Shown one piece after another: positions 10,033 through 62,340 of a stretch of DNA of 64,000 nt. Source of the stretch: Bacteroidales bacterium (lineage in GTDB: Bacteria > Bacteroidota > Bacteroidia > Bacteroidales > UBA3663). The DNA is taken from NCBI GenBank assembly GCA_045627865.1, contig JAZQOK010000004.1, positions 6,663 to 70,662 of the forward strand, in the 5' to 3' direction. Every line of letters starts with the position of its first letter. Position 1 is the stretch's first letter. The notes under the pieces were generated by a model. It saw only the letters and a program-made list of their open reading frames with translations, had not been told where the DNA came from and made no database searches. A program made the position numbers and the translations under genes.

Positions 10033-10099
10033 AAAGTTACAACTGGAGGTCAATGGGTATTGATAAATAGAATAAGTACTTTTAATTCTCCTTGCATTC

Positions 10100-18100: not shown

Positions 18101-18278
18101 GTTGCTCCCGAAGTTTTCGGAACGAGCAAAATTTGCGTCGCGTTGCTCCCGAAGTTTTCGGAACGAACAAAACTCGCGTCGCGTTGCTCCCGAAGTTTTC
18201 GGAACGAGCAAAACTCGCGTCGCGTTGCTCCCGAAGTTTTCGGAACGAGCAAAACTCGTGTCGCGTTGCTCCCGAAGT
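18101..18278. repeat. 41-bp tandem repeat, 4 full copies plus a 14-nt partial copy; each unit contains a bulged hairpin
   Basis: The unit is GTTGCTCCCGAAGTTTTCGGAACGAGCAAAACTCGCGTCGC, with copies starting at 18101, 18142, 18183, 18224 and 18265 (partial). Copies differ by only 1-4 substitutions. Within each unit TTGCTC pairs with GAGCAA and CCGAA pairs with TTCGG. Confidence 0.95.
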
Positions 18279-18396
18279 GTGTGGAAGTGTAAGGTGTTTC
18301 TCGTCTTAATAATAAAAGTAAGTTATCAAATCCTCTATATTCGGGAATAATCAGTGCCTGCTTGGTGCCTCAGTTTTCTTATCTCCAAACTCAGTT

Positions 18397-20671: not shown

Positions 20672-20717
20672 GGACCCTTCCCCGGCCCCTCCCATTTCGC
20701 TTCGCTAGGGAGGGGAG
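20672..20717 (+). repeat. GC-rich palindromic element, long subtype; G-rich arm abuts the antiporter start codon
   Basis: GGACCCTTCCCCGGCCCCTCCC-ATTTCGCTTCGCTA-GGGAGGGGAG. Together with the adjacent AT-rich/GGTAAC segment (to about 20770) it is homologous to 54000-54094 and 56375-56461. Confidence 0.8.
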
Positions 20718-20817
20718 TAGTTACCTTCTACTTACGGGGATTAATTTTGGTAATTATTAATAATTGTTGTTTGTTTTGTTTTATTGAGAATTTCGACCCA
20801 TGTCTTGTCGCAATACA

Positions 20818-20852
20818 CTCCCTCCCTTCTCAAGGGAGGGTTGGGGTGGGTC
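20818..20852 (-). repeat. GC-rich palindromic element, subtype 2, 4 nt after the lepA stop
   Basis: CTCCCTCCC-TTCTCAA-GGGAGGG-TTGGGGTGGGTC. The reverse complement begins GACCCACCCCAACCCTCCC. Confidence 0.85.
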
Positions 20853-20856
20853 TTTC

Positions 20857-22698
20857 TTAGTCGAGTTTCAAAACTGCAAGGAATGCTGTCTGAGGTACTT
20901 CGACTTTGCCAATCTGCTTCATGCGCTTCTTGCCTCGTTTCTGAGCCTCGAGCAGTTTGCGCTTACGGCTGACGTCACCACCATAACACTTGGCGGTTAC
21001 ATCCTTGCGCACCTGCTTGATGGTTTCGCGGGCAATGATCTTGGCACCGATGGCAGCCTGTACTGCTACATCAAACTGCTGACGAGGGATGAGTTCTTTC
21101 AGCTTCTCGCACATGCGACGACCGAAACGCTCTGCATTGTCAACGTGAGTCAGGGTGCTGAGTGCATCGACCTGTTCGCCGTTGAGAAGGATATCGAGCT
21201 TGATCAGCTTCGATGGACGGAAGTCGTGGATGTAGTAATCGAACGAAGCATAACCCTTCGAGATGGATTTGAGCTTGTCGTAGAAATCGATGACGATTTC
21301 GCCCAAAGGCAGGTCGAAGTAGATCTCGACGCGGTTGCCCGAGATGTACTTCTGTTCCACCAGTACGCCACGTTTGTCGAGGCAGAGCTTCATGATGCCA
21401 CCGATGAACTCTGTTTGTGTAATGATGGTGGCACGGATAAATGGCTCCTCGATATGCTCGATGGCCATGATGTCCGGCATGCCCGATGGGTTGTGGATTT
21501 CGGATTCAACGCCATGTTTGTCGAAAATCTTATAGGATACGTTCGGCACCGTAGTGATGACATCCATATTGAACTCACGACCCAGACGTTCCTGGACAAT
21601 CTCCATGTGGAGCAAACCGAGGAAGCCGCAACGGAAACCGAAACCGAGGGCCAACGAAGACTCCGGTACAAACGAGAGCGAGGCATCGTTAAGCTGCAGC
21701 TTCTCGAGCGAAGCACGCAGGTCTTCGTAATCTTCTGGGTCGATAGGATAGACACCGGCGAAGACCATAGGTTTGACCTCCTCGAATCCGGCAATCGCCT
21801 TGTCGCAAGGACGTGCCTGATGGGTAATGGTGTCACCCACCTTCACTTCGGTCGATGTCTTGATACCCGAGCAGATGTAACCTACGTCACCGCACTTGAC
21901 CTCGGCACGAGGTTCCATGTCCATACGGAGGATACCAACCTCGTCTGCATCATATTCGCTGCCGGTATTGACGAACTTGACCTTGTCGCCCTTCTTCATC
22001 GAACCATTCACGATCTTGAAGTAACCGATCACACCCTTATAGCTGTTGAATACTGAATCAAAGATCAAAGCCTGCAATGGAGCCTCCGGGTCGCCCGAAG
22101 GAGCAGGAACTCGTTCGACGATAGCCTCCAGGATCTCAGGAACACCGAGGCCAGTTTTGCCCGAAGCACGGAGAATCTCTTCGCGCTTACAGCCAAGCAG
22201 GTCGATGATTTCGTCCTCAACGAGTTCGGGCATGGCCGAATCCAAGTCGCACTTGTTGATGATTGGAATGATCTCGAGGTTATGGTCGATGGCCATGTAG
22301 AGGTTCGAGATGGTCTGTGCCTGAATGCCCTGCGTACCATCCACGATGAGCAGAGCGCCCTCGCAAGCGGCAATCGAACGTGAAACCTCGTACGAGAAAT
22401 CGACGTGGCCAGGGGTATCAATCAGGTTCAGAATATATTTGCCTGCCTCTTGTTGCTGGCCGATGTGCATGATCTGTTCCTCCTCGTTCAGTTGGCGAGG
22501 GGTGTAGTTGTAATCCATCTGGATGGCGTGGCTCTTGATGGTGATACCACGTTCGCGTTCCAGATCCATGTTGTCGAGTATCTGAGCTTGCATGTCGCGC
22601 TCGGCTACGGTCTTGGTACATTCCAGAAGGCGGTCGGCCAAAGTGGATTTACCGTGGTCAATGTGTGCGATGATGCAGAAGTTGCGGATATTCTTCAT
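20857..22698 (-). CDS. lepA: Translation elongation factor 4 (LepA)
   Basis: 613 aa. Start [25 protein letters not shown], followed by [11 protein letters not shown] and a LepA C-terminal domain. Confidence 0.95.
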
Positions 22699-32295: not shown

Positions 32296-32357
32296 ACATT
32301 AATTGTTATTAGCAAGAGAAATTAACCAAATTTGGCAATTTCTTCACTGAATTTCGT

Positions 32358-32389
32358 CCCCTCCCTTTACGGGAGGGTTAGGGTGGGTC
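32358..32389 (-). repeat. GC-rich palindromic element, subtype 2, overlapping the leuS TAG stop
   Basis: CCCCTCCC-TTTAC-GGGAGGG-TTAGGGTGGGTC. On the leuS strand it reads TAGACCCACCCTAACCCTCCC..., with the G of the TAG stop being the first base of the element. Confidence 0.85.
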
Positions 32390-41474: not shown

Positions 41475-44400
41475 TTACTTGATCATCTGACCAGCAGCGT
41501 TGAAGGTGCGGCCATTTTTAACGATGATGAATTTGCCATTGATCATGTACTTGCCGTCCTTGACTGAAGCTGCAGCGTTGATGTTAGAGAGAGCAACGAG
41601 ATCGGTGAAGGTTACGGTAGCCTTGCAAGCCTGATAGAGTGCATTGATCTTGATGTAGATGGTCTGCTCTACCTGACCCTCGTTGTCGTAAATGCCAGTG
41701 TAACCAGTGCCCTGATACTCGATCTGAGACTCGGTCTCGCCAACGATCATGTAAGCTGATGGATAACCATCGAATGCAATGGTCATCTTCTTGCCAGCAG
41801 GAACTACGATGCTGTAGTAGTTAGCCAAACCACCATTGGCAATGCCTGCGATCTCGTTTTCGCCCTCTACGAGAACCTTAGCGGTAGCCATGGTCTCGCC
41901 CTCAGCATAGTCGCGGATTGAGAGGGTGAAGGTCTTGCCGGTAGCATCTTCCTGAGCAGTCAACTTGATGTTGAGAACATCGCCCTCCTTAACTTCGATC
42001 GATGAACCATAGCTGTATGACTTCTCACCAATGGTAACACCACCCATCACGTAACCGAGGTTAGAGAGGTCGAGCTTAACGACACCATCCTTGGTAGCGG
42101 TGTAAACATAGTAAGTATAGCTGTACTGGTAGGTTACAGGATCCATAACGCCCTGAGCAGGACCCTGAACTGGCTCGTCGGCGATGATGACGATTGGGTT
42201 CTCTTCTGTGCCAACTGGAGCAGGGATGTCAACTACGCAAGCATAAGCGCAGACGATAGCAGGAGCACCCCAGTTGTTCTCGGCCTTAACACCCTTCAGG
42301 TACTTGTAGTCAGCGATGTTGACTGAGTAGATGCCAGGAGCTGCGATGCCATAACGCTGGGTGAAGTCTGCTGTCTCGAATACTGAATCTGGGTGAGCAT
42401 AGAGGGTTACAACCTGATTCTTGACATCATCCCAGAACCAAACGCGGAGAGCAAGACCGTCGGTGGCAACGCTGCCGCCTGTGCTGCCCTCGGTGATAAC
42501 AAACGAGAGCTTCTCGTAGTCAGCGATGTTTACGTGGGTAGCCTCGTTGCTGCCGTCGCCGTCGCCGAATGACTCACCCTGAACTGCGAGAGTCTTTGGA
42601 TAAGTTACTGAGTTTGCCCAGTTGGTGTTGGTGCCGGTCAACTCCTTGAGGTCGATATTGCCCTCTGGGAGTTCTGCCATCATCTGGAGGAGAAGGTAAG
42701 CGGCCTCAGCATCGGTGAGCACCTTGAGCTGCTCGGCAGAGATGAGTGCCTTAGCGTCGTCGTTGAGTGTCTGGTAAGCTGCACGAGCCTCCTCGATGCG
42801 AGCCTTGCATTCGTCGGTGAACTCAACGGTACCGATAGCGTTGATCTTGTTGACTACGATAGCAGCAAGTACCTCGTTGAAGTCACCATCGAAGGTGTGG
42901 ATCTCGAGAGCGTAGAGACGTGTGCGGTTGTTGAGGGTGAGCTTGAGGTCACCCGTGCTCATGGCGATAGCGGTACGAGTCTGCTTTGAGGTCGAAGACT
43001 CGGTGATGCCCTCCATGAGGTCGCCAGTGATGACAGCTGCGTTGTCCTTGTTGTTCGAGCTCATCAGGAGCACGAGAGTATCACCTGCATTGATCTGTGG
43101 GATAGTCATATCGACAGTACCCTGCATCTGCATGTAGTACTCACCAGTTACACCGATCAGAATCTTGTCGGCTGCAGCCTTGAACTTAAGACCAGCGGTA
43201 AGACCGAGTGGTGATTCGCCGAGGAGGAGCTCCTCATTGTCGGTAGCAAGAGCATAAGAGTAGCGACCCTTTGAACTTGCGTTCCAGTGTGCTGCATCGT
43301 CGGCAATCTCTGGGTAGTTCTTGCCGTTAGAGAAGGTCCATGTACGTGGGCCAGCCTCCTTGACGGTCCAAGATGCTGAGAATTCAGTATTGAAATCACC
43401 GTTGGCATCCTTGAACATACCAGCAGGGATATTCAGGGTGTAGGTGCCAGGGGTATGGAGCATGTGATCCTCTGAGTCGAAGGTGAAACGAGCATAAACG
43501 GTTGTTGCGCCCTCCTCGCCCTCATAACCATATACATAGGCGTTGCCACCTACAGGCTGGTTGTTGGCATCGGTCAGGGTGATGTTACCCTCGTTGAGCG
43601 CGGTGATAGCGTTAGCTGCGGTGATTGAGAAGTTGTAAGCGAGTGCCTCAACCTCTGCGTCAGGAGCAACGTCTGCACCATTGACTACAGCGGTGATATC
43701 GAATGGCTGTGGAGTGCGAGTCTCCTTGATGGTCCAAGAGGCAGTGAACTCGGTGTTGAGTGCATTGTTGGCTGCCTTGAACATGCCAGCAGGAACGTGA
43801 ATGGTGTAGGTGCCAGGAGTGTGGAGGCAGTGATCCTCCGAATCGAAGGTGAAACGAGCATAAACGGTTGTTGCACCCTCCTCGCCCTCGTATCCAAATA
43901 CATAGGCGTTGCCACCTACAGGCTGGTTGTTGGCATCGGTCAGGGTGATGTTGCCCTCGTTGAGACCAGTGATAGCGCTGGCTGCAGTGATTGAGAAGTT
44001 GTAGTTGAGTGCCTCAACCTCCGAACCTGACTCAACTTCATAACCGTTAACAACTGAGGTGATAGCGAATGGTTCTACTGTCTCGCTCTCGATGATTACC
44101 CACTTTACAACGGCTGCTGCATTAGGGGCGCCATTCTCATCAACGAAAGTACCCTCTGGGATGTTGAGTACATAGGTGCCTGGGGTGGTGAAGTAATACT
44201 GCTGGAGTGCCATGAAACGGATATAAGCAGATTCTGCACCGAATGCCAGTACGCTTGCAGCACCGAAGTCCTTGCTGCTGTCTTCGAACAGCGAAAGGGT
44301 TGGGGTAGCGGTGCCCTGTGAGAGCTGCTTGCCAGTGGCGGTGATTGTGAACTGGTAGGCAATGCCGTCGGCCGAAGCCTCGACACCCATGATTGAACCA

Positions 44401-44894
44401 GCTACGCCGTTGTTTTCAACCGATGTCAAAGTGAATGGCTCTGCAGAACCACCACCGATGTTGGCATTCAATTCGATGGTTGGGATGTAGGCTTCTGCGT
44501 CATCGACCATGAATGTGCCATAATCCTCGATGTAGAGCTTGGTTGTGCCGGCAGGAATAGCTGCAGTATAACCATCCAAAGCTATGAATCCATCCAGGGT
44601 AATCTTGTTGCCCTCGATGGTGCAGGTTGAGCCATAGGCAATACTCCACACACCATACATCGCAGAGCCATCTTTGTTACCCAAGACCAGATAGGCTGCA
44701 TCTTCTTCGCCAAGAGCGACAATAGAGGTTGCACCTGGAAGTGTGATCTGCAGGCCGTTGAGATCCTCAAGGCTTGTTACAACTTGGTCGTCCATCGAGG
44801 TGGTGACAGTTTCTCCGTCCCACGCTGTGGCTTTCGCGAAAATACTCGTAATAGCCATGATGGATACCATGAAAAGAGATAAAATTTTTTTCAT
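41475..44894 (-). CDS. Large secreted cell-surface protein with tandem ~122-aa repeats and a C-terminal beta-rich tail resembling a T9SS sorting domain
   Basis: Start placed at ATG 44894 (MKKILSLFMVSIMAITSIFA, a signal peptide), with a TATTTTTG -7 box on the minus strand at 44972-44979. Two near-identical repeats (...NEGNITLTDANNQPVGGNAYV.GYEGEEGATTVYARFTFDSEDH.LHTPGTYT...) are accompanied by a diverged third copy. The C-terminus is ...KDGKYMINGKFIIVKNGRTFNAAGQMIK. Confidence 0.7.
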   Translation of the reverse strand: MKKILSLFMVSIMAITSIFAKATAWDGETVTTSMDDQVVTSLEDLNGLQITLPGATSIVALGEEDAAYLVLGNKDGSAMYGVWSIAYGSTCTIEGNKITLDGFIALDGYTAAIPAGTTKLYIEDYGTFMVDDAEAYIPTIELNANIGGGSAEPFTLTSVENNGVAGSIMGVEASADGIAYQFTITATGKQLSQGTATPTLSLFEDSSKDFGAASVLAFGAESAYIRFMALQQYYFTTPGTYVLNIPEGTFVDENGAPNAAAVVKWVIIESETVEPFAITSVVNGYEVESGSEVEALNYNFSITAASAITGLNEGNITLTDANNQPVGGNAYVFGYEGEEGATTVYARFTFDSEDHCLHTPGTYTIHVPAGMFKAANNALNTEFTASWTIKETRTPQPFDITAVVNGADVAPDAEVEALAYNFSITAANAITALNEGNITLTDANNQPVGGNAYVYGYEGEEGATTVYARFTFDSEDHMLHTPGTYTLNIPAGMFKDANGDFNTEFSASWTVKEAGPRTWTFSNGKNYPEIADDAAHWNASSKGRYSYALATDNEELLLGESPLGLTAGLKFKAAADKILIGVTGEYYMQMQGTVDMTIPQINAGDTLVLLMSSNNKDNAAVITGDLMEGITESSTSKQTRTAIAMSTGDLKLTLNNRTRLYALEIHTFDGDFNEVLAAIVVNKINAIGTVEFTDECKARIEEARAAYQTLNDDAKALISAEQLKVLTDAEAAYLLLQMMAELPEGNIDLKELTGTNTNWANSVTYPKTLAVQGESFGDGDGSNEATHVNIADYEKLSFVITEGSTGGSVATDGLALRVWFWDDVKNQVVTLYAHPDSVFETADFTQRYGIAAPGIYSVNIADYKYLKGVKAENNWGAPAIVCAYACVVDIPAPVGTEENPIVIIADEPVQGPAQGVMDPVTYQYSYTYYVYTATKDGVVKLDLSNLGYVMGGVTIGEKSYSYGSSIEVKEGDVLNIKLTAQEDATGKTFTLSIRDYAEGETMATAKVLVEGENEIAGIANGGLANYYSIVVPAGKKMTIAFDGYPSAYMIVGETESQIEYQGTGYTGIYDNEGQVEQTIYIKINALYQACKATVTFTDLVALSNINAAASVKDGKYMINGKFIIVKNGRTFNAAGQMIK
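43390..44121. repeat. Intragenic tandem duplication, 2 x 366 bp
   Basis: GGTGCCAGG recurs at 43443 and 43809, a period of 366 bp. About 130 nt around GAAGGTGAAACGAGCATAAACGGTTGTTGC...GGTCAGGGTGATGTT is nearly identical between the copies. Confidence 0.85.
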
Positions 44895-46024: not shown

Positions 46025-47200
46025 TTATTGTTCAACTTTCGGTAGTTGACGGAAGTAAATAAGCGAATCGGTTTCGCCCAAACGGATGTGTCGCATCTCG
46101 GTGAGGATACGTTCGGGGTGGAAGGGGGCGACTTCGAAATAATCGGAACGGGCGGTGTTACAACCATAGACCTGTCCCGTCTGTGCCGCCTTGAACTGGC
46201 CATACAGCGGATTCTGGGCAAGCAGTGAGGCAAGTGTCCAGCTGGCTTCTGTGTCAAAGTATTTGAATACCCACACGTCGGCATCGCTGGCTTGTGCATA
46301 GACCGCTTCGGCTGATAATGCCAACGACCCACCATGCGTATCGTCGGCCCAAGGATACTGGAATCCAGCATCCTGATAGATCCAACTGGCCGAGCTGCGT
46401 CCGCCCGGAACATACCAGGTGGCGCCGTAGGGGAGGTCTGAGAGGATGGACCCCCCGTCCCCCTTTAGGGGGAGATCTGAGCTGTCGTTTTGGGATGCTA
46501 TGTTGTTATATTTTGTTTCGATTTCATTGAATAGCTGGTCGGCTTCGGCCGCTTTGTTGACAAGGCGGCCATAGAAGCGCATCCATTCGGCTCGGCCCAG
46601 GGGAGAGGTCTCCTGATAGTCGGCACAATAGATGATGGGAATCTGGGGTAGGATGGCGGTGATCATGGCTTGCGAGCCGGCATCGTAGGGGGTGACCCAG
46701 ATTGCCTCGCTGTTGGCCGAAAGGATAATCTCTGGGTTAGGTGCCATGCTACCTCCCGCCTCGACAATACGACCCGATTCCAATTGGGCCAGAACCTGCG
46801 GATTGAGGATATACTCGGCATCGCACAATACACCGACACAGTCGAGGGCTTGCAGCTCGGCATAGAGCGAGGCATGGCACGAGGCGGTCAACGTCTGTTG
46901 CCGGAGCGGAGTGTGCAGGGTCTGGATCCGTCCGTATTGCGCTTCGATTTCGTCCAGTTCTTCGTCGCTGAGGGTATCGCCCGGGATGAGCAGATACTGC
47001 ATGGCGATACGTTCGGGTTGCCACGGATTGAGGATGCGGCACAGGGTCATGCCATTGTCCAAGTCCTGCATCTGCAGGAGCGAGGCGTAGCGGGTCGATG
47101 CGCCGGTTTGCTGGAGTGGCTCTTCGGGGGTGCGTTGGTGGCAAGCCGAATTCACTCCGACCACGCAAAGAAGTAACAATCGATAGGCGGTTTTTCTCAT
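46025..47200 (-). CDS. ABC-transporter periplasmic binding lipoprotein (BtuF/FhuD-like, Peripla_BP_2)
   Basis: Start placed at ATG 47200 (MRKTAYRLLLLCVVGVNSAC, a lipobox). The architecture is that of an iron-chelate/B12 binding protein. It contains an in-frame palindromic-element insertion at 46448-46474. Confidence 0.65.
   Translation of the reverse strand: MRKTAYRLLLLCVVGVNSACHQRTPEEPLQQTGASTRYASLLQMQDLDNGMTLCRILNPWQPERIAMQYLLIPGDTLSDEELDEIEAQYGRIQTLHTPLRQQTLTASCHASLYAELQALDCVGVLCDAEYILNPQVLAQLESGRIVEAGGSMAPNPEIILSANSEAIWVTPYDAGSQAMITAILPQIPIIYCADYQETSPLGRAEWMRFYGRLVNKAAEADQLFNEIETKYNNIASQNDSSDLPLKGDGGSILSDLPYGATWYVPGGRSSASWIYQDAGFQYPWADDTHGGSLALSAEAVYAQASDADVWVFKYFDTEASWTLASLLAQNPLYGQFKAAQTGQVYGCNTARSDYFEVAPFHPERILTEMRHIRLGETDSLIYFRQLPKVEQ
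46448..46474 (+). repeat. GC-rich palindromic element, short form, inside a coding sequence
   Basis: GGACCCCCCGTCCCCC-TTTA-GGGGGAG. It is flanked by direct repeats GGAGGTCTGAG (46432-46442) and GGAGATCTGAG (46471-46481), spaced 39 nt apart. Confidence 0.85.
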
Positions 47201-50322: not shown

Positions 50323-50364
50323 ATGACAATAGTAAGCGCATATTGGTGGTGGCGTTGCTCATAA
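50323..50364 (+). CDS. trp operon leader peptide (13 aa, three consecutive Trp codons)
   Basis: ATG ACA ATA GTA AGC GCA TAT TGG TGG TGG CGT TGC TCA TAA translates to MTIVSAYWWWRCS. It lies between the promoter box and an intrinsic terminator, 125 nt upstream of trpB. Confidence 0.75.
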   Translation: MTIVSAYWWWRCS

Positions 50365-50414
50365 CTTAATCGTTGTGGGTTGCAACCCTATGCACTTAAA
50401 GCAATATAGAAAAG

Positions 50415-50449
50415 GGCTTGCGAGACACAGCGTCTTGCGAGCCTTTTTT
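50415..50449 (+). terminator. Intrinsic (attenuator) terminator in the trp leader
   Basis: 12-bp stem GGCTTGCGAGAC / GTCTTGCGAGCC with two G-U pairs and the 5-nt loop ACAGC. It is followed by T6, 40 nt upstream of the trpB ATG. Confidence 0.75.
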
Positions 50450-50488: not shown

Positions 50489-51682
50489 ATGAAAACTTAT
50501 AACGTTGATGAAAACGGCTACTATGGCCAGTTCGGTGGAGCCTACATTCCAGAGATTCTCTACAAGACCGTCGAGGATCTGAAGAAGGCTTATTTGCCAA
50601 TTATTGAGAGCAAGGAGTTCCAGGATGAATATCGTGCCCTTTTGAAGGACTATGTGGGCCGTCCGTCGCCACTCTATTTCGCTAAGCGAATGAGCGAGAA
50701 GTATGGTTGTCAGCTCTACCTGAAACGTGAGGACTTGAACCATACCGGAGCACACAAGATCAATAATGCCATCGGACAGATTCTGATTGCCAAGAAGATG
50801 GGCAAGAAGCGTATCGTGGCTGAGACCGGTGCCGGACAGCATGGTGTGGCTACCGCTACCGTATGTGCGCTGATGGATATTCCTTGTCGTGTCTATATGG
50901 GTGCCACGGATGTGGCTCGTCAGCGTCCGAATGTGGAGCGTATGCGTATGCTGGGTGCTGAGGTTTTCCCTGTCGAGAGCGGCAACAAGACCCTCAAGGA
51001 TGCGACCAATGAGGCTATTCGCGACTGGTGCTGCCATCCAGCCGATACATTCTATATTATTGGTTCGACCGTAGGCCCACACCCTTATCCTGACATGGTG
51101 GCTCGTCTGCAGGCAATCATCAGCGAGGAGATCAAGTGGCAACTCCAGGAGAAGATCGGTCGTGACTATCCGGATTACCTGATGGCTTGTGTGGGCGGTG
51201 GTTCGAATGCTGCCGGTACCATCTACCACTACATCGACGACGAACGTGTGAAACTCGTGCTCGGTGAAGCTGGCGGTATGGGTTATGAGACAGCCGAAAC
51301 AGCCGCTTCGATCACCATCGGTACAGTAGGTATCCTGCACGGTAGCCGCATCAAACTCATGCAAACCGAGGATGGTCAGATCATCGAACCTTATTCCATC
51401 TCTGCCGGTTTGGATTATCCAGGCACAGGTCCAATCCATTGTAATCTGGCTGATCAGGGTCGCGCCAAGGTATTGCCTATCAACGACGATGAGGCGCTTC
51501 GTGCAGCCTTCGAGTTGACCCGCATGGAGGGTATCATCCCAGCACTTGAATCCAGCCATGCTTTGGCCATGTTGCCTAAGATGAAGCATCTCTTCAAGCC
51601 TGAGGATGTAGTCGTACTGACTGTCTCTGGCCGTGGCGACAAGGACCTTGAAACCTACTTGAAGCACAAAGAGACCCTCTAA
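50489..51682 (+). CDS. trpB: Tryptophan synthase beta chain
   Basis: 397 aa. GQFGGAYIPE...LNHTGAHKINNA (PLP-Lys)...GGGSNA. Confidence 0.95.
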   Translation: MKTYNVDENGYYGQFGGAYIPEILYKTVEDLKKAYLPIIESKEFQDEYRALLKDYVGRPSPLYFAKRMSEKYGCQLYLKREDLNHTGAHKINNAIGQILIAKKMGKKRIVAETGAGQHGVATATVCALMDIPCRVYMGATDVARQRPNVERMRMLGAEVFPVESGNKTLKDATNEAIRDWCCHPADTFYIIGSTVGPHPYPDMVARLQAIISEEIKWQLQEKIGRDYPDYLMACVGGGSNAAGTIYHYIDDERVKLVLGEAGGMGYETAETAASITIGTVGILHGSRIKLMQTEDGQIIEPYSISAGLDYPGTGPIHCNLADQGRAKVLPINDDEALRAAFELTRMEGIIPALESSHALAMLPKMKHLFKPEDVVVLTVSGRGDKDLETYLKHKETL

Positions 51683-51700
51683 ATCTCCCTTTAGGGAGAC
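51673..51700 (+). repeat. Degenerate short-form palindromic element spanning the trpB stop
   Basis: GACCCTCTAAA-TCTCCC-TTT-AGGGAGA-C is followed by TTTTT. The GACCCTCT terminus is shared with the family. Confidence 0.5.
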
Positions 51701-51728
51701 TTTTTGGAAGTTACATAAGAACTAAGAA

Positions 51729-53174
51729 ATGACAATGTTCAAATATCATACAGCATCGAAAACGATACTTGGCGATCTTTGTACTCCGGTATCTGTATAT
51801 CTGAAGGTCCGCGATGCCTATCCGCAGTCGGCTCTGATGGAGTCGAGCGATTATCATGGGGGCGAAAATGCCAAGTCCTTCATCGGCTTGCATCCGATTG
51901 CCAGCGTTTCGATCGCACATGGCGTAGGTATTGCCAAGTTCCCCGATGGAACCGAGATCTCGCACCCAATCACCAAGGAATATGGTTCGGCTCAGGTGAT
52001 CAACGACTTCCTGGCTTCGTTCGAGGTATCGGGCGAAAAGAGCAACTACTGCGGTTTGTTCGGCTATACTTCGTTCAACGCAGTACGTTATTTCGAAAAC
52101 ATCAACGTGAAGGATGAGACCCAGTCGGAGAATGATGCACCTGATCTGCTCTATATATTATATAAAGATGTAGTGGTGTTCGACCATTTCCGCAACGAAA
52201 TGATCCTGATCGAGCTCTTGAGCGAGGGCGAGGAGGATGACCTGGATCAGTTGGAACGTGACTGCCAGAGCCGTGCTTATCAGACCTACGATTTCCATCC
52301 GGTGGGTGACTATTGGTCAACTTTGACCGACGACGAACATCGTGCCAACATCCGCAAGGGAATCCAGCATTGTCTGCGTGGTGATGTGTTCCAGATTGTT
52401 CTGTCGCGACGTTTCAAGCAGAAGTACGAGGGCGATGACTTCAAACTCTACCGTGCGTTGCGTAGCATCAACCCAAGTCCATATCTGTTCTACTTTGATT
52501 TCGGCGGCTTCCGTATCTTCGGCTCAAGTCCTGAGACCCATTGCCGTATAGAAAAGACCCCCCTGCCCCCTTTAGGGGGAGAAGGAACCTCCCAGACAAG
52601 ATATACCGCCTACATCGATCCGATTGCGGGTACAACCAAACGTACTGGTAATGCGGAGCAGGACCGACAGAATGCCCTCTATCTGAAGAATGATCCGAAG
52701 GAGAATGCCGAGCATGTGATGCTGGTGGATCTGGCTCGTAATGACCTGAGCCGTAACTGCCATGGTGTGCATGTGGACTTCTACAAGGATATGCAGTTCT
52801 ACAGTCATGTGATTCACTTGGTGAGTCGTGTGAGTGGCGAGTTGGACGAAGGTGCTGATCCAATCAAGGCCTTCATCGATACTTTCCCTGCAGGAACCCT
52901 GAGTGGCGCTCCTAAGGTTCGAGCCATGCAGCTCATTAGCGAATATGAACCACACAACCGTGGCGCTTATGGCGGCTGTATCGGATTCATCGGCTTCGAC
53001 AAGAGCCTCAATCAGGCCATCACGATCCGCACTTTCGTGTCTCGCAACAACGAACTCTGGTTCCAGGCGGGTGGCGGTATCGTTGCCAAGAGCGATGTAG
53101 AATATGAACTTCAGGAGGTGAACAATAAGTTGGGTGCCCTCCGTAAGGCAATCTTAATGGCAGAGAAGCTATAG
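51729..53174 (+). CDS. trpE: Anthranilate synthase component I
   Basis: 481 aa. LVDLARNDLSR, GTLSGAPKVRAMQLI and GGGIVAKSD are present. It contains an in-frame palindromic-element insertion at 52556-52581. Confidence 0.95.
   Translation: MTMFKYHTASKTILGDLCTPVSVYLKVRDAYPQSALMESSDYHGGENAKSFIGLHPIASVSIAHGVGIAKFPDGTEISHPITKEYGSAQVINDFLASFEVSGEKSNYCGLFGYTSFNAVRYFENINVKDETQSENDAPDLLYILYKDVVVFDHFRNEMILIELLSEGEEDDLDQLERDCQSRAYQTYDFHPVGDYWSTLTDDEHRANIRKGIQHCLRGDVFQIVLSRRFKQKYEGDDFKLYRALRSINPSPYLFYFDFGGFRIFGSSPETHCRIEKTPLPPLGGEGTSQTRYTAYIDPIAGTTKRTGNAEQDRQNALYLKNDPKENAEHVMLVDLARNDLSRNCHGVHVDFYKDMQFYSHVIHLVSRVSGELDEGADPIKAFIDTFPAGTLSGAPKVRAMQLISEYEPHNRGAYGGCIGFIGFDKSLNQAITIRTFVSRNNELWFQAGGGIVAKSDVEYELQEVNNKLGALRKAILMAEKL
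52556..52581 (+). repeat. GC-rich palindromic element, short form, inside the trpE coding sequence
   Basis: GACCCCCCTGCCCCC-TTTA-GGGGGAG is translated as (K)TPLPPLGGE. It is almost identical to the copy at 46448-46474. Confidence 0.85.
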
Positions 53175-53223
53175 ACCCTCTCCGCCCCACAAGGGGGCAC
53201 CTCCCCCTTAATGGGGAGGGGAG
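53174..53223 (+). repeat. GC-rich palindromic element, subtype 1, overlapping the trpE TAG stop
   Basis: (TA)GACCCTCTCCGCCCCACAAGGGGGCACCTCCCCC-TTAA-TGGGGAGGGGAG. It is about 90% identical to 9988-10032. Confidence 0.9.
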
Positions 53224-53273
53224 TATGGTTGATGCTGGCAAGAGGGAAATATAGTTGAATTATAAATAAAAAT

Positions 53274-53930
53274 TTGATGAATAATAACGACAATAAAATA
53301 CAAACTATTTCTCCCTCCCCATTAAGGGGGAGGGCTGGGGAGAGGGTCTCAGTCGTCATCATCGACAACTACGATTCGTTTACCTACAACCTCTCGCACC
53401 TGGTCAAGGAGCTTGGTGCCGAAGTGACTGTGTATCGTAACGATCAGTTCCAGATGGAGCAGTTGGAAGCTTTCGACAAGATCATCCTTTCTCCAGGCCC
53501 AGGCATTCCATGTGAGGCAGGATTGTTGCTCGACGTGATTAAGGCATACGCCGGCAAGAAACCAATTCTGGGCGTTTGTCTCGGACATCAGGCCATCGGC
53601 GAGAGCTTCGGCGGCACGTTGACCAACATCGGACAGGTCATGCATGGTGTGGCAACTCCATGTCACATCACTAAAGATGACTATCTCTTCGAGGGTTTGT
53701 CTAAGGATCTTGAGATTGGCCGTTACCACTCGTGGGTAGTTGATCAGCAGAACTTCCCGGATTGCCTGGAGGTAACCTCCGTGTCGGACGAGGGTTACAT
53801 CATGTCGCTCCGTCACAAGGAATACGACATCCGTGGCATCCAGTATCATCCTGAGTCTGTATTGACTCCTGATGGCAAGGCTATATTGAAGAATTGGCTA
53901 TATGGACCCTCCCCCGAACCCCTCCCATAA
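53274..53930 (+). CDS. trpG: Anthranilate synthase component II (glutamine amidotransferase)
   Basis: 218 aa. The core is VVIIDNYDSFTYNL...GVCLGHQAIG...IQYHPES. The first ~25 and last 8 codons are encoded by palindromic-element sequence. Confidence 0.9.
   Translation: MMNNNDNKIQTISPSPLRGRAGERVSVVIIDNYDSFTYNLSHLVKELGAEVTVYRNDQFQMEQLEAFDKIILSPGPGIPCEAGLLLDVIKAYAGKKPILGVCLGHQAIGESFGGTLTNIGQVMHGVATPCHITKDDYLFEGLSKDLEIGRYHSWVVDQQNFPDCLEVTSVSDEGYIMSLRHKEYDIRGIQYHPESVLTPDGKAILKNWLYGPSPEPLP
53311..53348 (-). repeat. GC-rich palindromic element, subtype 1, reverse orientation, inside the trpG 5' coding region
   Basis: CTCCCTCCCC-ATTAA-GGGGGAGGG-CTGGGGAGAGGGTC. It is the inverted partner of 53174-53223. 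Confidence 0.9.
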
Positions 53931-53950
53931 TGGAGGGGAGAGGTTTGAAA
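53905..53950 (+). repeat. GC-rich palindromic element, subtype 2, containing the trpG stop codon
   Basis: GACCCTCCCCCGAACCCCTCCC-ATAATG-GAGGGGAGAGGTTTGAAA. The TAA stop (53928-53930) lies in the hairpin loop. The GAGAGGTTTGAAA tail is shared with 56278-56321. Confidence 0.9.
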
Positions 53951-54022
53951 CGTGTGGTCGAATTCCTAATGGAGCAATCCAATACCTAAATAATTAACAA
54001 TTGACAATTAATAATTAACAAT

Positions 54023-54094
54023 GTTACCAATCCCCCGATAGCAATAGGTAACTGCTCCCTCCCCCTAAAGGGGGTCGGGGGTCCGGGGTGGGTC
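54023..54094 (-). repeat. GC-rich palindromic element, long subtype, ending 3 nt before ATG 54098
   Basis: GTTACCAATCCCCCGATAGCAATAGGTAAC-TGCTCCCTCCCCC-TAAA-GGGGG-TCGGGGGTCCGGGGTGGGTC. It is about 90% identical to 56388-56461. Confidence 0.95.
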
Positions 54095-54097
54095 TTT

Positions 54098-54292
54098 ATG
54101 AAACAATTTTTCTGCAATTTGCTAGCTACAGTAGTTTGCTTTTCTGTTGGCTTTGTGATCATTCACTATTTGTTCGTTTGGTTCGGTTGGAGTCAGTCAG
54201 AACCACTCCTCAATACTTTGGCTTATGGTGCAGGAATGGGTGTGTTATACCAGATTACCATTAGTCTATATTATTTAATCAAGAAAAAATGA
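54098..54292 (+). CDS. Small two-TM membrane protein of unknown function embedded in the trp operon
   Basis: 64 aa: MKQFFCNLLATVVCFSVGFVIIHYLFVWFGWSQSEPLLNTLAYGAGMGVLYQITISLYYLIKKK. Its stop overlaps the trpD start (ATGA at 54289-54292). Confidence 0.5.
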   Translation: MKQFFCNLLATVVCFSVGFVIIHYLFVWFGWSQSEPLLNTLAYGAGMGVLYQITISLYYLIKKK

Positions 54293-55284
54293 AACAATAC
54301 CTTTTGAAACTCATCGCTGGTGAAACCCTCTCACAGGAGGAGACCCACCAGATCATGCTCAACATCGTTCAGGAGCAATACAACGTACAACAGATTGCAG
54401 CTTTGCTGATGGCTCTGCAAACCCGTGGAGCAACCGTCGATGAATTGCTTGGCTTCCGTCAGGGTCTTCTCGAAACGGGTAAATATATTAATGTAGAGGA
54501 TTATAATACACTCGATATTGTCGGTACCGGTGGCGATGGTAAGAATACCTTCAACATCTCGACCTGTTCGGCTTTCGTCATAGCTGGTGCTGGCTACAAA
54601 GTCTCGAAGCATGGCAACGGAGGAGCCACTTCTGTATCGGGTGCATCGAATGTACTGGAGGGTCATGGCGTGAAGTTCACCGACGACGAAAGCAAGTTGC
54701 GTCGTTCGTTGGAGGAGGCTGGTATCTGCTATTTCCATGCTCCTTTGTTCGCCTATGGCATGAAGTTCGTGGGCCCTACCCGTAAGGCTTTGGCTGTGCC
54801 TACTTGCTTCAATCTGCTGGGCCCATTGGTAAACCCTTGTCATCCGAAGAATTCGTTGCACGGTACTGCCAATCAGAGCCAGTTGCGTCTCTATACCAAT
54901 ATTCACCAGAAGATCGGCGATAACTATGGTGTAGTTACCTCTTACGATGGCTACGACGAAATCTCCCTCACCTCGGGCTTCAAGATCTGCACCAATAATT
55001 TCGAAAAGGTGCTCACTCCTGTCGATCTGGGCTTGAAGTATGTCAAGCAGGAGGAGATCTTTGGTGGCAATACTGCAGCCGATGCCATGAAGATCTTCGA
55101 TGCTGTGCTGGATGGTTCAGCTACCGAGGCTCAGAAGAACGTGGTGATTGCTAATGCTGCCTGCGGTATCAGCGTGATGAACATGAACCTCTCGATGGAG
55201 GATTCGGTTGCTGCTGCCCGCGAATCGTTGGAGAGTGGCAAGGCTCTTCAGGTATTCAAGAAGTTCGTTGAGATTAACAGTTAA
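54289..55284 (+). CDS. trpD: Anthranilate phosphoribosyltransferase
   Basis: 331 aa. DIVGTGGDGKNTFNIST...KHGNGGATS. Confidence 0.95.
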   Translation: MKQYLLKLIAGETLSQEETHQIMLNIVQEQYNVQQIAALLMALQTRGATVDELLGFRQGLLETGKYINVEDYNTLDIVGTGGDGKNTFNISTCSAFVIAGAGYKVSKHGNGGATSVSGASNVLEGHGVKFTDDESKLRRSLEEAGICYFHAPLFAYGMKFVGPTRKALAVPTCFNLLGPLVNPCHPKNSLHGTANQSQLRLYTNIHQKIGDNYGVVTSYDGYDEISLTSGFKICTNNFEKVLTPVDLGLKYVKQEEIFGGNTAADAMKIFDAVLDGSATEAQKNVVIANAACGISVMNMNLSMEDSVAAARESLESGKALQVFKKFVEINS

Positions 55285-55295
55285 AAGCCCCACAC

Positions 55296-55324
55296 GACCC
55301 CCTCCCAGCCTCCCCGTGGGGAGG
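55296..55324 (+). repeat. GC-rich palindromic element, subtype 3, 11 nt after the trpD stop
   Basis: GACCCCCTCCCAGCCTCCCC-GT-GGGGAGG. It is identical to the reverse complement of 57144-57172. Confidence 0.9.
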
Positions 55325-55384
55325 AGTGGGTAGATAGAATGGGTGTTCGGTTATTTATATAATAGTTAAACGATAAATCACTTA

Positions 55385-55436
55385 CCCTCCAGTGGTGTCA
55401 AAAAACTCCTCCCCTCGGGGAGGTCGGGAGGGGGTC
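55385..55436 (-). repeat. GC-rich palindromic element, subtype 3, ending 2 nt before the trpC ATG
   Basis: CCCTCCAGTGGTGTCAAAAAACTCCTCCCC-TC-GGGGAGGTCGGGAGGGGGTC. It is about 85% identical to 57121-57172. Confidence 0.9.
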
Positions 55437-55438
55437 CT

Positions 55439-56278
55439 ATGAAAGATATTCTCGAAGAAATAGTAGCCAACAAACGTGAGGAGCTGGCTGTAGCGATCAG
55501 CGATCTGCCGTTGGAGACGTTGAAGAAGTTCACCGAGCAGAAGATCGCTCGCGATGGCGCTCTGAAACTCCGTTCCATGCGACAGAGTCTGGCTCAGTCG
55601 CAGAGCGGTATAATCGCCGAGTTCAAACGCAAGAGCCCAAGCAAGGGCTGGATTCATGCCGATGTTGAACCCGAAGATGTAGTGCCTAAGTATGCCGAAG
55701 GTGGTGCTTCGGCCAGCAGCATCCTGACCGACGAGAAATACTTCGGCGGTAAACTGGAGTTCATTCAGCGAGTACGAGATCTGGCTCCAAATCTGCCTCT
55801 GCTTCGCAAGGAATTTATCATCGACGAATATCAGCTCTACGAGGCTCGTCTGGTTGGTGCTGATGCTGTGCTGCTTATTGCGGCCGATCTGCATCCTGCT
55901 CAATATGGAGAACTCTTGCAAGTGGCACATAGTTTGGGCTTGGAGGTTCTGCTCGAGGTGCATGACTCTGCCGAACTGGAGTATCTGAAGGCTGGTGTGC
56001 CAGACATGTTGGGTGTCAACAACCGTTCGTTGGGTACTTTCCATACCGATGTGCAGCACAGTTTCGATATTGCGATCGAGATGCAACGTGCGGTCAAGGA
56101 GTTGTGTTTGTCGGACGAAGAGGCTCCGCTGTTGGTCAGCGAATCGGGTATCGGCAATCCTTCGGTTGTCAAACTGTTGCGTGAGAAGGGCTTCCGTGGC
56201 TTCCTGATCGGAGAGTGCTTCATGAAGGAGGCTGATCCAGGTCTTGCTCTGAAAGAGTTTATCCAGCAGACCTTATAG
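55439..56278 (+). CDS. trpC: Indole-3-glycerol-phosphate synthase
   Basis: 279 aa. IIAEFKRKSPSKG...LRKEFIIDEYQLYEAR...LLEVH. Confidence 0.95.
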   Translation: MKDILEEIVANKREELAVAISDLPLETLKKFTEQKIARDGALKLRSMRQSLAQSQSGIIAEFKRKSPSKGWIHADVEPEDVVPKYAEGGASASSILTDEKYFGGKLEFIQRVRDLAPNLPLLRKEFIIDEYQLYEARLVGADAVLLIAADLHPAQYGELLQVAHSLGLEVLLEVHDSAELEYLKAGVPDMLGVNNRSLGTFHTDVQHSFDIAIEMQRAVKELCLSDEEAPLLVSESGIGNPSVVKLLREKGFRGFLIGECFMKEADPGLALKEFIQQTL

Positions 56279-56321
56279 ACCCACCCCTAACCCTCCCTCG
56301 TTGGGAGGGAGAGGTTTGAAA
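56278..56321 (+). repeat. GC-rich palindromic element, subtype 2, overlapping the trpC TAG stop
   Basis: (TA)GACCCACCCCTAACCCTCCC-TCGTT-GGGAGGGAGAGGTTTGAAA. Confidence 0.9.
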
Positions 56322-56350
56322 TAATGGGTCAAAATTATTCTCTATACCTT

Positions 56351-56366
56351 GTGGGTGGAGAGGGTC
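56351..56366 (-). repeat. Truncated subtype-1 terminus in reverse orientation
   Basis: GTGGGTGGAGAGGGTC followed by TA. The reverse complement, TAGACCCTCTCCACCCAC, matches the start of the 53174 copy. Confidence 0.7.
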
Positions 56367-56387
56367 TATTTTAGTAAATAATAACTT

Positions 56388-56461
56388 GTTACCAATCCCT
56401 CGATAGCAATAGGTAACTGCTCCCTCCCCCTAAAGGGGGGCGGGGGGTCCGGGGGTGAGTC
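56388..56461 (-). repeat. GC-rich palindromic element, long subtype, ending 2 nt before the trpF ATG
   Basis: GTTACCAATCCCTCGATAGCAATAGGTAAC-TGCTCCCTCCCCC-TAAA-GGGGGG-CGGGGGGTCCGGGGGTGAGTC. Confidence 0.95.
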
Positions 56462-56463
56462 TT

Positions 56464-57105
56464 ATGATTGTAAAAGTTTGCGGCATGACAAGTGCCGATA
56501 ATATAAAAGCTGTGGAGGCTGTATTGGCCGATACACAAGCAACTGAGAAGTGGATGGGTTTCATCTTCTGGGAGCCATCGAAACGTAATTGTGCCACCAA
56601 GCCCGATTATCTGCCCGTGGATTGCAAACGCGTAGGCGTGTTTGTGAATGCAGAGGTCGAGGAGGTTGTGAAACGTGCGGTGGAGTTCGGTTTGACCCAC
56701 ATCCAGTTGCATGGCGACGAGAACCGCCAGTACATCATGGCTTTGCGTCAGGCTCTGGCTGCTGCCAACAACAAATGCGTCATCATCAAGGCGTTGAGTC
56801 TGAAGGTAGCCAACGATGTTGAAAAGTGCGAACCCTACGTCGGCTTTGTCGATTACTTCCTGTTCGATACGCCAACCACAGGCCGTGGCGGTAGCGGTAA
56901 CAGCTTCGACTGGAAACTGCTGGAGGGTTACCGCATGATGACTCCTTTCATTCTGAGCGGTGGCATCGGATTGGATAGTGTCGAATCTCTCAAACAGTTC
57001 AGTCATCCCTGTTGGGAGGGCATCGACCTCAACTCTAAGTTTGAGTCGGCTCCAGGCATCAAGGATGCAAAGAAACTTCGTGAATTTATAGTAAATATCA
57101 ATTAA
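56464..57105 (+). CDS. trpF: Phosphoribosylanthranilate isomerase
   Basis: Start placed at ATG 56464 (MIVKVCGMTS...) rather than the GTG at 56455, which lies inside the repeat. Also ...HIQLHGDE.... Confidence 0.9.
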   Translation: MIVKVCGMTSADNIKAVEAVLADTQATEKWMGFIFWEPSKRNCATKPDYLPVDCKRVGVFVNAEVEEVVKRAVEFGLTHIQLHGDENRQYIMALRQALAAANNKCVIIKALSLKVANDVEKCEPYVGFVDYFLFDTPTTGRGGSGNSFDWKLLEGYRMMTPFILSGGIGLDSVESLKQFSHPCWEGIDLNSKFESAPGIKDAKKLREFIVNIN

Positions 57106-57120
57106 ATATAAAACCATTTG

Positions 57121-57172
57121 CCCTCCAGTGGTGTCATTAAACACCTCCCCACGGGGAGGCTGGGAGGGGGTC
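57121..57172 (-). repeat. GC-rich palindromic element, subtype 3, ending 3 nt before the trpA ATG
   Basis: CCCTCCAGTGGTGTCATTAAACACCTCCCC-AC-GGGGAGGCTGGGAGGGGGTC. Confidence 0.9.
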
Positions 57173-57175
57173 TTT

Positions 57176-57952
57176 ATGAATAGAATCAATCAACTTTTTG
57201 CCAATAAACCACAGAATCTTTTGAGTCTGTATTTCTGTGCCGGAGCTCCTACGCTCGATGGTACAGCCGATGTGATCCGTACGCTCGAGAAGAACGGAAT
57301 CTCGATGATCGAGGTGGGTGTGCCATTCTCAGATCCTATGGCCGATGGTCCTGTGATCCAGGAGGCAGCTACCAAGGCTTTGCGCAACGGTATGTCGTTG
57401 CGTCTGCTGTTCGACCAACTGAAGGATATTCGTCAGGATGTCACCATTCCTCTGATCCTGATGGGTTATCTGAACCCAGTCATGCAGTATGGCTTCGATA
57501 ACTTCTGCAAGAAGTGTAATGAAGTGGGCATCGATGGCGTGATCATTCCAGATCTGCCATTCAAGGACTATATGGAGGAGTATAAGCCTATTGCCGACAA
57601 GTACGATATTCGTATTATCATGCTCATTACTCCAGAGACCAGCGAAGAAAGAATCCGCTTCATCGACCAGAATACCGATGGTTTCATCTACATGGTCTCT
57701 TCTGCCGCCATTACGGGTGCGCAGAAGGAGTTCAACGATGCCAAGCAGGCCTACTTCAACAAGGTACATGCCATGAACCTCCAGCATCCAACCATGATCG
57801 GTTTCGGTATCTCCAACAAACAGACCCTTGAGTCGGCTCAGGCTAATGCCAATGGTGCCATCATCGGTTCGAAGTTCGTGCAGTTGCTGGATGCTGCCAA
57901 TGGCGATGCACAAGTCGCTATCGACCAGCTTTATGATGCATTAAAGCAATAA
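57176..57952 (+). CDS. trpA: Tryptophan synthase alpha chain
   Basis: Start placed at ATG 57176 (MNRINQLFANK...) rather than the GTG at 57128, which lies inside the repeat. Also EVGVPFSDPMADGPVIQ. Confidence 0.95.
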   Translation: MNRINQLFANKPQNLLSLYFCAGAPTLDGTADVIRTLEKNGISMIEVGVPFSDPMADGPVIQEAATKALRNGMSLRLLFDQLKDIRQDVTIPLILMGYLNPVMQYGFDNFCKKCNEVGIDGVIIPDLPFKDYMEEYKPIADKYDIRIIMLITPETSEERIRFIDQNTDGFIYMVSSAAITGAQKEFNDAKQAYFNKVHAMNLQHPTMIGFGISNKQTLESAQANANGAIIGSKFVQLLDAANGDAQVAIDQLYDALKQ

Positions 57953-62288: not shown

Positions 62289-62316
62289 TTCTTAATACCA
62301 TCCTCCCCTATGAATT

Positions 62317-62340
62317 CCCCCTAAAGGGGGTTAGGGGGTC
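62317..62340 (-). repeat. GC-rich palindromic element, short form, ending 5 nt before the symporter ATG
   Basis: CCCCC-TAAA-GGGGG-TTAGGGGGTC. The reverse complement is GACCCCCTAACCCCCTTTAGGGGG. Confidence 0.85.

Follow-up and report, generated by a model that had tools for sequence, protein, structure and literature searches.

Element ends before six start codons

We analysed a 64,000-nucleotide (nt) stretch of DNA from a Bacteroidales bacterium (assembly GCA_045627865.1, contig JAZQOK010000004.1, positions 6,663 to 70,662 of the forward strand; hereafter the window), which carries a trp operon at 50489-57952. A sequence-only reading of it had noted that six start codons are immediately preceded by the GGGTC end (once GAGTC) of a G-rich element. 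All six read as it had described, with a gap of 2-5 nt between element end and ATG:

ATG 54098, plus strand: GGGTC-TTT-ATG, small open reading frame (ORF)
ATG 55439, plus strand: GGGTC-CT-ATG, trpC
ATG 56464, plus strand: GAGTC-TT-ATG, trpF
ATG 57176, plus strand: GGGTC-TTT-ATG, trpA
ATG 62346, plus strand: GGGTC-TTACT-ATG, symporter gene (SSF)
ATG 20670, minus strand: GGGTC-CT-ATG, CitMHS_2 transporter gene
Before ORF 9539-9985, minus strand: GGGTC-TA-ATG, possible seventh case

The seventh case is uncertain because its ORF matches nothing in Pfam and is not preceded by a promoter motif. Sequence comparison supports the start codons well at five of the six sites, the exception being that of the small ORF at 54098; outside the trp operon, gene starts are longest-ORF calls. 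The start of TrpC agrees with 120 homologues that open with MKDILEEIVANKR or a close variant, and the first codons of trpF and trpA are kept in orthologous loci whether the element is present or absent. Those of the symporter gene are kept in the related assembly L001, which has no unit at that junction. The gene at 20670, called an antiporter by the sequence-only reading, encodes a CitMHS_2 transporter whose residues 5-431 align to positions 4-448 of the Pfam profile. For the 64-residue small ORF, on the other hand, the sole match in the protein collection was one 100%-identical protein on two small contigs (273 and 1236 nt), and its match to DUF6404 is sub-threshold.

The small ORF opens with 10 nt (ATGAAACAAT, 54098-54107) that exactly repeat the opening 10 nt of trpD (54289-54298), and its stop codon overlaps the trpD ATG (ATGA). 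Relatives have trpD directly next, which means that a 191-bp segment, flanked by a 10-bp direct repeat, has been inserted at the very start of trpD. This insertion creates a two-helix membrane peptide, in this lineage only.

Leaders of the element-adjacent genes

The sequence-only reading had contrasted the G/C hairpins upstream of these genes with the A/U-rich leaders found elsewhere, and a comparison of the seven element-adjacent genes with 40 other genes bears this out (all RNA structures given here are predictions). The minimum free energy (MFE) of the region from -50 to +20 was -22.8 kcal/mol for the element-adjacent leaders and -8.1 kcal/mol for the others. Between -20 and -1 the A+U fraction was 0.31 as compared to 0.68, and that of A alone was 0.10 as compared to 0.41. 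The differences in MFE, opening energy and A+U have Mann-Whitney p ~4e-5 to 1e-4. When folds were scored against dinucleotide shuffles, the z-scores were not significant, because separate runs of G and C fold strongly in any order; the absolute energies and the comparison between genes are informative instead.

Shine-Dalgarno sequences are reportedly not recognised by the ribosomes of Bacteroidia: the anti-Shine-Dalgarno is sequestered, and mRNA structure together with upstream A residues tunes initiation (PMC6847099, PMC7797042, PMC13000453). The premise that Bacteroidota lack Shine-Dalgarno pairing and favor low structure near the start is therefore sound according to these sources, and for ribosomes of this kind the element-bearing leaders are genuinely anomalous.

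The spacing is also far from random. With a curated gene list, seven of about 20 outer element ends lie 2-5 nt upstream of a start, for which P is ~1e-15 under random placement and ~5e-9 under uniform placement in intergenic DNA. The assertion that orientation and spacing are not due to chance thus stands, although they are not specific to starts, since stop codons are hugged equally often (see below).

A family of palindromic repeats

The element ends belong to a repeat family. We used a rule-based finder that requires a pyrimidine arm and a purine arm separated by a loop, followed by a G-rich tail that ends in G(G/A/T)GTC; a covariance model was dropped because, in a MAFFT alignment of 34 units, the C arms fell out of register as loop lengths varied. 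The finder gave 16 strict copies in the window, compared to 0-1 in Markov-simulated windows, and three weaker copies recognised by eye bring the number to about 19. Each unit is made up of a 6-9-bp hairpin of the CCCTCCC/GGGAGGG type that is separated by 2-3 nt from another G-rich tract, with GGGTC(T) as the terminus. The base following GGGTC is T in 43 of 61 ends across all contexts, which indicates that the terminus is (A)GACCC...GGGTC(T) and that the flanks are A/T-rich.

Units occur singly or paired as the 27-37-nt inverted ends (86-97% complementary) of modules of 70-190 nt with an AT-rich core. At least three module types recur (L, R1 and R2). The copies in the window are:

54010-54094, plus strand: R1 module, ending 3 nt before ATG 54098 and forming the right half of composite 53905-54094; AT-rich head AATAATTAACAATG, TTACC..GGTAAC stem, CCCCC-TAAA-GGGGG hairpin and G tail GGGGGTCCGGGGTGGGTC; a 93% identical copy lies at 56387-56453 (family D8)
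53905-54094, plus strand: composite of an L module and R1 between trpG and the small ORF; the trpG frame enters it and stops inside it (TAA 53928-53930)
55296-55436, plus strand: 141-nt element between trpD (stop 55284) and trpC (ATG 55439); 37-nt inverted ends (GACCCCCTCCCAGCCTCCCC...GGGGAGGTCGGGAGGGGGTC), 86% complementary; predicted to fold as a closed domain at -81 kcal/mol
56278-56366, plus strand: L-type element with inverted ends, beginning on the trpC stop codon (TAG/ACCC); an orthologous copy is present in L010
56376-56461, plus strand: second R1 module, ending in GAGTC 2 nt before trpF ATG 56464 (family D8)
57106-57175, plus strand: R2 module occupying the entire trpF-trpA spacer from stop codon to ATG 57176; built as ATATAAAACC..CCCTCCAGTGGT..CCTCCCC-ACG-GGGGAGG-CT-GGGAGGGGGTCTTT, with 79% identity to 55356-55436 (family D6)
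53174-53348, plus strand: inverted-end element between trpE and trpG, its first G overlapped by the trpE stop TAG; predicted hairpin of -86.6 kcal/mol
51673-51699, plus strand: single unit at the end of trpB, with the stop TAA (51680-51682) inside it
52556-52590, plus strand: in-frame unit inside trpE
62302-62340, plus strand: short unit ending 5 nt before the symporter ATG 62346, downstream of a DHDPS-family gene in one operon
20673-20852, minus strand: composite of 180 nt that separates lepA (stop 20857-20859) from the CitMHS_2 transporter gene; 4 nt separate the stop from GACCC, and 2 nt separate GGGTC from the ATG
32357-32389, minus strand: single unit; its GACCC end and the TAG stop of a leucyl-tRNA synthetase gene overlap (family D18)
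46449-46475, minus strand: in-frame unit inside a periplasmic-binding-protein gene
9988-10060, minus strand: double-hairpin unit that stops 2 nt short of the ATG of ORF 9539-9985, an ORF that cannot be annotated (family D17)
548-583, minus strand: possible degenerate copy inside an ORF with Reg_prop repeats, seen in a loose scan only and missed by the strict finder

Placement at starts, at stops and inside genes

Three kinds of placement were found among the 16 strict copies. In seven, a start follows the GGGTC end after a gap of 2-5 nt. In another six the GACCC end lies on a stop codon or beside one (offsets of +4, -1, -1, -26, +11 and -1), three of them in the arrangement TAG/ACCC. The remaining three lie in frame inside coding sequences.

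The in-frame copies are translated. The unit in trpE lengthens a loop ahead of the PIAGT motif by 8-11 residues (TPLPPLGGEGTS), which are absent from L001, L002 and L004; that in the periplasmic-binding protein adds about six (LPLKGDGG). Among TrpC homologues we found at least four different element-encoded C-terminal tails. At the trpE-trpG junction, where relatives have a CTATGA overlap, the GTC of the element's right end stands at the position of the trpG ATG. The only in-frame start left to trpG is ATG 53277, in the AT-rich core of the element at 53174-53348, and the N-terminus of TrpG is extended by 24-26 residues encoded by the right arm, the GATase domain starting at residue 27. These repeats would explain odd spacers, false N- and C-terminal extensions and small inserts in conserved proteins when Prevotella-like genomes are annotated.

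The trp operon is a hot spot for the elements: all six of its junctions are occupied, as compared to about 4 of the roughly 40 other same-strand junctions in the window.

Empty sites and independent insertions in relatives

We fetched the orthologous trp operons of eight relatives (L001, L002, L004, L006, L010, L192, L193 and L194). Copies of the repeat occur in five of these assemblies (L001, L002, L192, L006 and L010), and the strict finder gave none in L004, L193 and L194. Empty sites are known at the trpE-trpG, trpD-trpC, trpG-trpD and trpF-trpA junctions, where the genes overlap or are separated by 8-12 nt. L001, whose TrpC is 88% identical to that of the window, is empty at trpE-trpG (ATGA) and at trpD-trpC (an 8-nt spacer, TAAAGACCCCGATG), the two places where the window has inserts of 174 and 154 nt. 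It has insertions of its own at trpG-trpD, trpC-trpF and trpF-trpA, all of which end 2-3 nt before the ATG; those at trpG-trpD and trpF-trpA belong to another subfamily than the window copy at the same junction. L006 is empty at trpE-trpG (ATGA) and at trpG-trpD, where the genes overlap (ATGA). In L194 trpF and trpA overlap (ATGA), and in L004 trpB and trpE overlap by 17 nt, both without an element. The junctions of L004, L193 and L194 are compact (overlapping or 12-47 nt) or hold unrelated repeats. Over all events in the window and the relatives, the offsets were 1, 2, 2, 2, 2, 2, 2, 3, 3, 3, 3, 3, 3, 5, 5, 6, 12 and 17 nt.

The window is one side of a natural experiment: in a phylum blind to Shine-Dalgarno sequences, essential biosynthetic genes lie 2-3 nt behind very stable GC hairpins or quadruplex motifs, and close relatives lack the insertion. 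A comparison of strains could weigh an open, A-rich leader against coupling to the upstream ORF in Bacteroidota initiation.

Several trp junctions of L193 and L194, the lineages without these elements, hold unrelated short tandem or palindromic repeats such as runs of TTTGTCC and CTCTAAGGA. The trpD-trpC spacers of L002 (6852-7000) and L192 (6770-7000) contain a different palindromic insert (AAAAGGAGTAAAAGGGAC...GTCCCTTTTACTCC), for which a closed domain is predicted between stop and start. The filling of junctions by hairpin elements is therefore not limited to one repeat family.

Identity between positions 54880-57140 of the window and its closest relative, L010, is a mosaic: 95-100% in the 3' part of trpD, 50-60% in the trpD-trpC spacer, 65-88% in trpC, 93-98% at 56190-56610 and 93-100% at 56910-57090. 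This indicates frequent homologous recombination, and some tract edges lie near repeat elements. The trpC-trpF spacer is 96% identical in the two lineages, as compared to 46% at fourfold sites of trpC; however, the high-identity tract (56190-56610) extends into both coding regions, so it points to a recombination mosaic and gives no evidence of constraint.

Transcriptional context of the junctions

All six well-supported cases are internal operon junctions. Without the elements, the spacers would measure about 0-13 nt at most junctions and about 20 nt at the symporter. The Bacteroidetes -7 promoter motif TAnnTTTG is absent from every element-bearing spacer, and we therefore rejected the possibility that the elements carry a promoter. 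The motif is present where promoters are expected, at 50287 for the trp operon and at 58042 for the operon ending with the symporter gene. Intrinsic terminators (a G+C stem followed by at least five U) were likewise rejected, as 2-3 T stand between the G ends and the ATG. A terminator pattern on the sense strand was seen only at the trpB-stop unit (51684-51699), and weakly; that at 55408-55423 is on the opposite strand.

One possibility suggested by this context is that the repeats are domesticated RNA elements of the REP (repetitive extragenic palindromic) or ERIC type, whose hairpins block exonucleases or mark sites of RNase processing and so set relative expression within an operon. All well-supported copies indeed lie in transcribed operon junctions without a promoter motif of their own, and their spacers form very stable predicted hairpins, with fold energies of -26 to -87 kcal/mol. 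REPs have been hypothesised to act in transcription termination and mRNA stabilization, among other roles (PMC3733652). Such a function, which is compatible with a selfish origin, has in our estimate a small chance of being correct: presence and absence turn over quickly between close lineages, and the identity of the trpC-trpF spacer with L010 falls within the recombination tract.

Control by tryptophan probably sits at the operon leader and not at the junction elements. The upstream region has the promoter motif TATCTTTG (50287) and, after it, a leader peptide of 13 codons, MTIVSAYWWWRCS (50323-50364), three of which are Trp codons in succession. The leader peptide is followed by a strong terminator-like hairpin of 18 bp that has a T run (50409-50449) and lies 40 nt before the trpB ATG. 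The peptide pattern ..AYWWWR.S is kept in all six lineages examined (the window, L002, L004, L192, L193 and L194), in five of them just downstream of TAnnTTTG. This arrangement looks like classical leader-peptide attenuation. It resembles the 'Bacteroid-trp' leader motif, although Rfam scans gave no match.

Insertion into short junctions or an initiation signal

The explanation that we favor, and as a whole consider probable, is that the G-rich element is the G-strand terminus of a selfish, mobile palindromic repeat family, REP/REPIN-like or resembling miniature transposable elements with inverted repeats (MITEs). Its modules have been inserted repeatedly into the tiny gaps between neighboring co-transcribed ORFs, and the spacing marks where insertions land and survive. 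Ancestral spacers of -4 to about 13 nt mean that any insertion must end a few nt from the ATG. The consistent orientation follows from the inverted-repeat build of the modules, whose outer end always faces an ORF. The constant spacing is thus mainly forced by short junctions, and a dedicated initiation function need not be assumed.

The modules would insert again and again into very short AT-rich junctions whose ancestral state is an ATGA overlap or about 8-13 nt. One terminus would come to lie on or beside the upstream stop and the other 2-3 nt from the downstream ATG, while some copies would land just inside ORFs and be read through in frame. Insertion may prefer or target A/T-rich stop/start junctions, and the leading candidate for the mobilising enzyme is the Bacteroidetes REP-associated tyrosine transposase (RAYT).

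The sequence-only reading had held that the elements should be strongly inhibitory unless they act as a positive or regulated initiation signal. As such a signal, selected for its fixed distance from the AUG, the G-rich arm could be a Shine-Dalgarno-like sequence or a structured site at which ribosomes stand by or land. In favor of this are the offset mode of 2-3 nt across independent insertions, the G strand, never the C strand, facing the AUG in every start-codon case, and genes that are intact in spite of very unfavorable leaders. In R2-type tails there is also a GGAGG 7-8 nt upstream of the AUG, as at trpC and trpA, and Bacteroidia ribosomes lacking bS21 can use Shine-Dalgarno sequences (PMC13000453). 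However, GGAGG is missing from the R1-type tails (54098 and 56464) and before 62346, it is predicted to be paired within the hairpin, and Bacteroidia ribosomes are reported not to use such pairing (PMC7797042). Orthologous genes work without the element, as the empty sites in relatives show. The mirror end GACCC hugs stop codons as often as GGGTC does starts (six compared to seven of the 16 copies), and further copies lie in frame in coding sequences. At trpG an insertion even destroyed the start codon. The proposal is not borne out by these observations, and a dedicated initiation signal is unlikely.

Several observations weigh against insertion of a mobile repeat into short junctions. Mobility is argued from sequence comparisons of presence and absence only, and the repeat census covers about 200 kb and is biased to trp operons. 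We found no consistent target-site duplication, having checked TA, 3-nt and others: TA flanks one element on both sides (56278-56366), whereas the flanks of the others are unmatched and simply A/T-rich. No ORF with the HUH...Y motifs of a transposase or RAYT is present in the window or any fetched locus, and no outward-facing pair of ends encloses a transposase-sized ORF in the loci examined. Elements are rare in some 4.5 kb of larger intergenic regions, yet occupy six of six trp junctions. The offset peak at 2-3 nt also holds where there was room for other outcomes, as at trpD-trpC (11 nt on the stop side, 2 nt on the start side) and in the symporter spacer, which measures about 20 nt. Insertion at random into a short spacer is therefore not a full explanation, and site specificity or selection is needed. 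Taken together, the 2-3-nt mode, the scarcity in intergenic DNA and the full occupation of the trp operon suggest a preference for A/T-rich stop/start junctions, selection, or both. A final point against this explanation, or at least against its account of how insertions are tolerated, concerns the predicted folds and is given with them below.

Predicted folds across the junctions

A single closed domain spanning the entire spacer is predicted for six of seven junctions in the window and for five of ten in relatives. In the closed spacers of the window the first paired base lies no more than 11 nt after the stop codon, sometimes overlapping it, and the last paired base no more than 2 nt before the AUG. 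Among shuffled spacers, the share of trials with equal closure was 2-16% for the six cases in the window and 0-26% for the five in relatives.

Insertions may be tolerated because the transcribed module folds closed and brings stop and start within about 5-15 nt of each other. As judged from this geometry, a terminating ribosome would melt the 5' strand at the base of the stem and free the 3' strand with the AUG, so that translational coupling would be kept. The proposal leaves aside the uncertain ORF at 9985. The point against it is that closure fails in half of the junctions of relatives, and the coupling idea draws on predicted folds only.

A stronger version would have the modules built to be translationally transparent: the closed hairpin would set the stop beside the AUG, and terminating ribosomes would re-initiate across it, a bacterial form of termination-dependent ribosome shunting or a strict structure-gated coupling. 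The phylum in question cannot use Shine-Dalgarno pairing. In a variant, GGAGG tails would let ribosomes lacking bS21 translate these genes selectively. We regard this version as improbable.

The G-rich strands also have the potential to form quadruplexes. The arm and tail together supply four G tracts with loops of 1-3 nt, for example GGGAGGGTTGGGGTGGG, and all eight canonical motifs ((G3+N1-7)x3 G3+) in the window lie in repeat units, as compared to about one expected:

20675-20693
20834-20850
32371-32387
53326-53346
53907-53926
54070-54092
55288-55315
56280-56297

Each unit could switch between hairpin and quadruplex, and it could be speculated that the G arm and tail upstream of an AUG toggle between the two and so gate initiation. 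Two motifs (54070-54092 and 20675-20693) do immediately precede an AUG on the mRNA strand, and a third (53326-53346) is in the translated trpG extension. On the other hand, half of the motifs are antisense, at stop codons; R2-type tails have only two-tier potential; and the complementary C arm competes for pairing. Such a switch is very improbable.

Comparison with known repeat families

ERIC/IRU of enterobacteria and the Correia elements of Neisseria are MITEs of operon spacers. The modules described here share with MITEs the terminal inverted repeats, an AT-rich core, a length of 70-190 nt, co-transcription with the flanking genes, a hairpin fold and presence/absence polymorphism. Unlike MITEs, they lack a consistent duplication such as TA, have no parent insertion sequence in the loci examined, are modular (L/R1/R2) and place their termini directly on stop and start codons.

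The likeness to REPs and REPINs is also close. These are short imperfect palindromes in many copies, present as singlets and as head-to-head inverted dimers that fold into a long hairpin (PMC6006769, PMC3733652). REPIN-like inverted doublets are found here at 55296-55436, 53174-53348, 56278-56366 and 20673-20852. Shared features also include the location in transcribed operon spacers, occasional in-frame copies and the lack of an obvious target-site duplication. In contrast to REPs, the family lacks a tag (GTAG or CGTC) at the stem's foot, its arms are homopurine/homopyrimidine, and it has a second pair of G tracts and a GGGTC(T) terminus 9-15 nt from the stem; no RAYT gene accompanies it in the window or the fetched loci. 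CGTC REP families have stems of 8-9 bp, in which the first two positions are nearly always complementary A-T residues, and a CCA tail (PMC3733652). The present family fits neither of the two REP super-families set out in PMC3733652.

The best lead for a mobilising enzyme is RAYT subclass 2.6, a candidate by analogy. Members of this subclass, found mostly in Bacteroidetes, have flanking hairpins of an atypical kind with further copies elsewhere in the genome, and in-frame REP insertions are known (PMC6006769). The repeats may be cargo of these poorly understood Bacteroidetes RAYTs.

Some Rickettsia palindromic elements (RPE) are filed as CGTC REPs in PMC3733652. As in Rickettsia, in-frame palindromic insertions add short peptides and leave the protein intact (trpE, the binding-protein gene, the TrpG N-terminus and the TrpC C-termini). 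The two differ in that there is no sequence relationship, the phylum is another and most copies in the window lie at gene boundaries.

No Rfam covariance model matched the window at gathering thresholds; at E<=1 the sole matches were spurious, to eukaryotic RNA models (four microRNA-precursor hairpins and one small nucleolar RNA). Literature searches on the terminal 11-mers returned only unrelated eukaryotic papers, and those on Prevotella MITEs nothing relevant. When a genome collection was scanned with the R2 tail pattern, inspection found a complementary C-rich arm upstream in at least about 100 of about 135 matches listed; tail and G arm are part of the search pattern, so that only the C-rich arm is independent evidence. 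A metagenome scan with the R2-internal pattern CCCTCCAGTGGTN{5,14}CCTCCCC gave 59 chance matches and no element. It missed the L001 contig as well, and the collection evidently does not hold these metagenomes.

Among the matches listed from the genome collection (L011-L130), the same unit build, a C-rich arm CCTCCCCC, a loop, GGGGGAGG, 2-3 nt and GGGAGGGGGTC, was seen in many phyla, often with two to three copies per 8-kb locus. These include Alpha- and Gammaproteobacteria, Chloroflexota, Dormiibacterota, Patescibacteria, Spirochaetota and Synergistaceae. The shared build points to a very widespread REP-like type of repeat.

Other repeats in the window

A 518-nt intergenic region holds about six tandem copies of a 41-nt unit (GTTGCTCCCGAAGTTTTCGGAACGAGCAAAACTCGCGTCGC) at 18060-18305, each with a small palindrome; a CRISPR array was rejected here as there are no spacers. 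Finally, a 300-nt direct repeat with 85% identity (43350-43649 and 43716-44015) lies inside a 1139-residue ORF (41475-44894, minus strand) and presumably represents an internal domain duplication.

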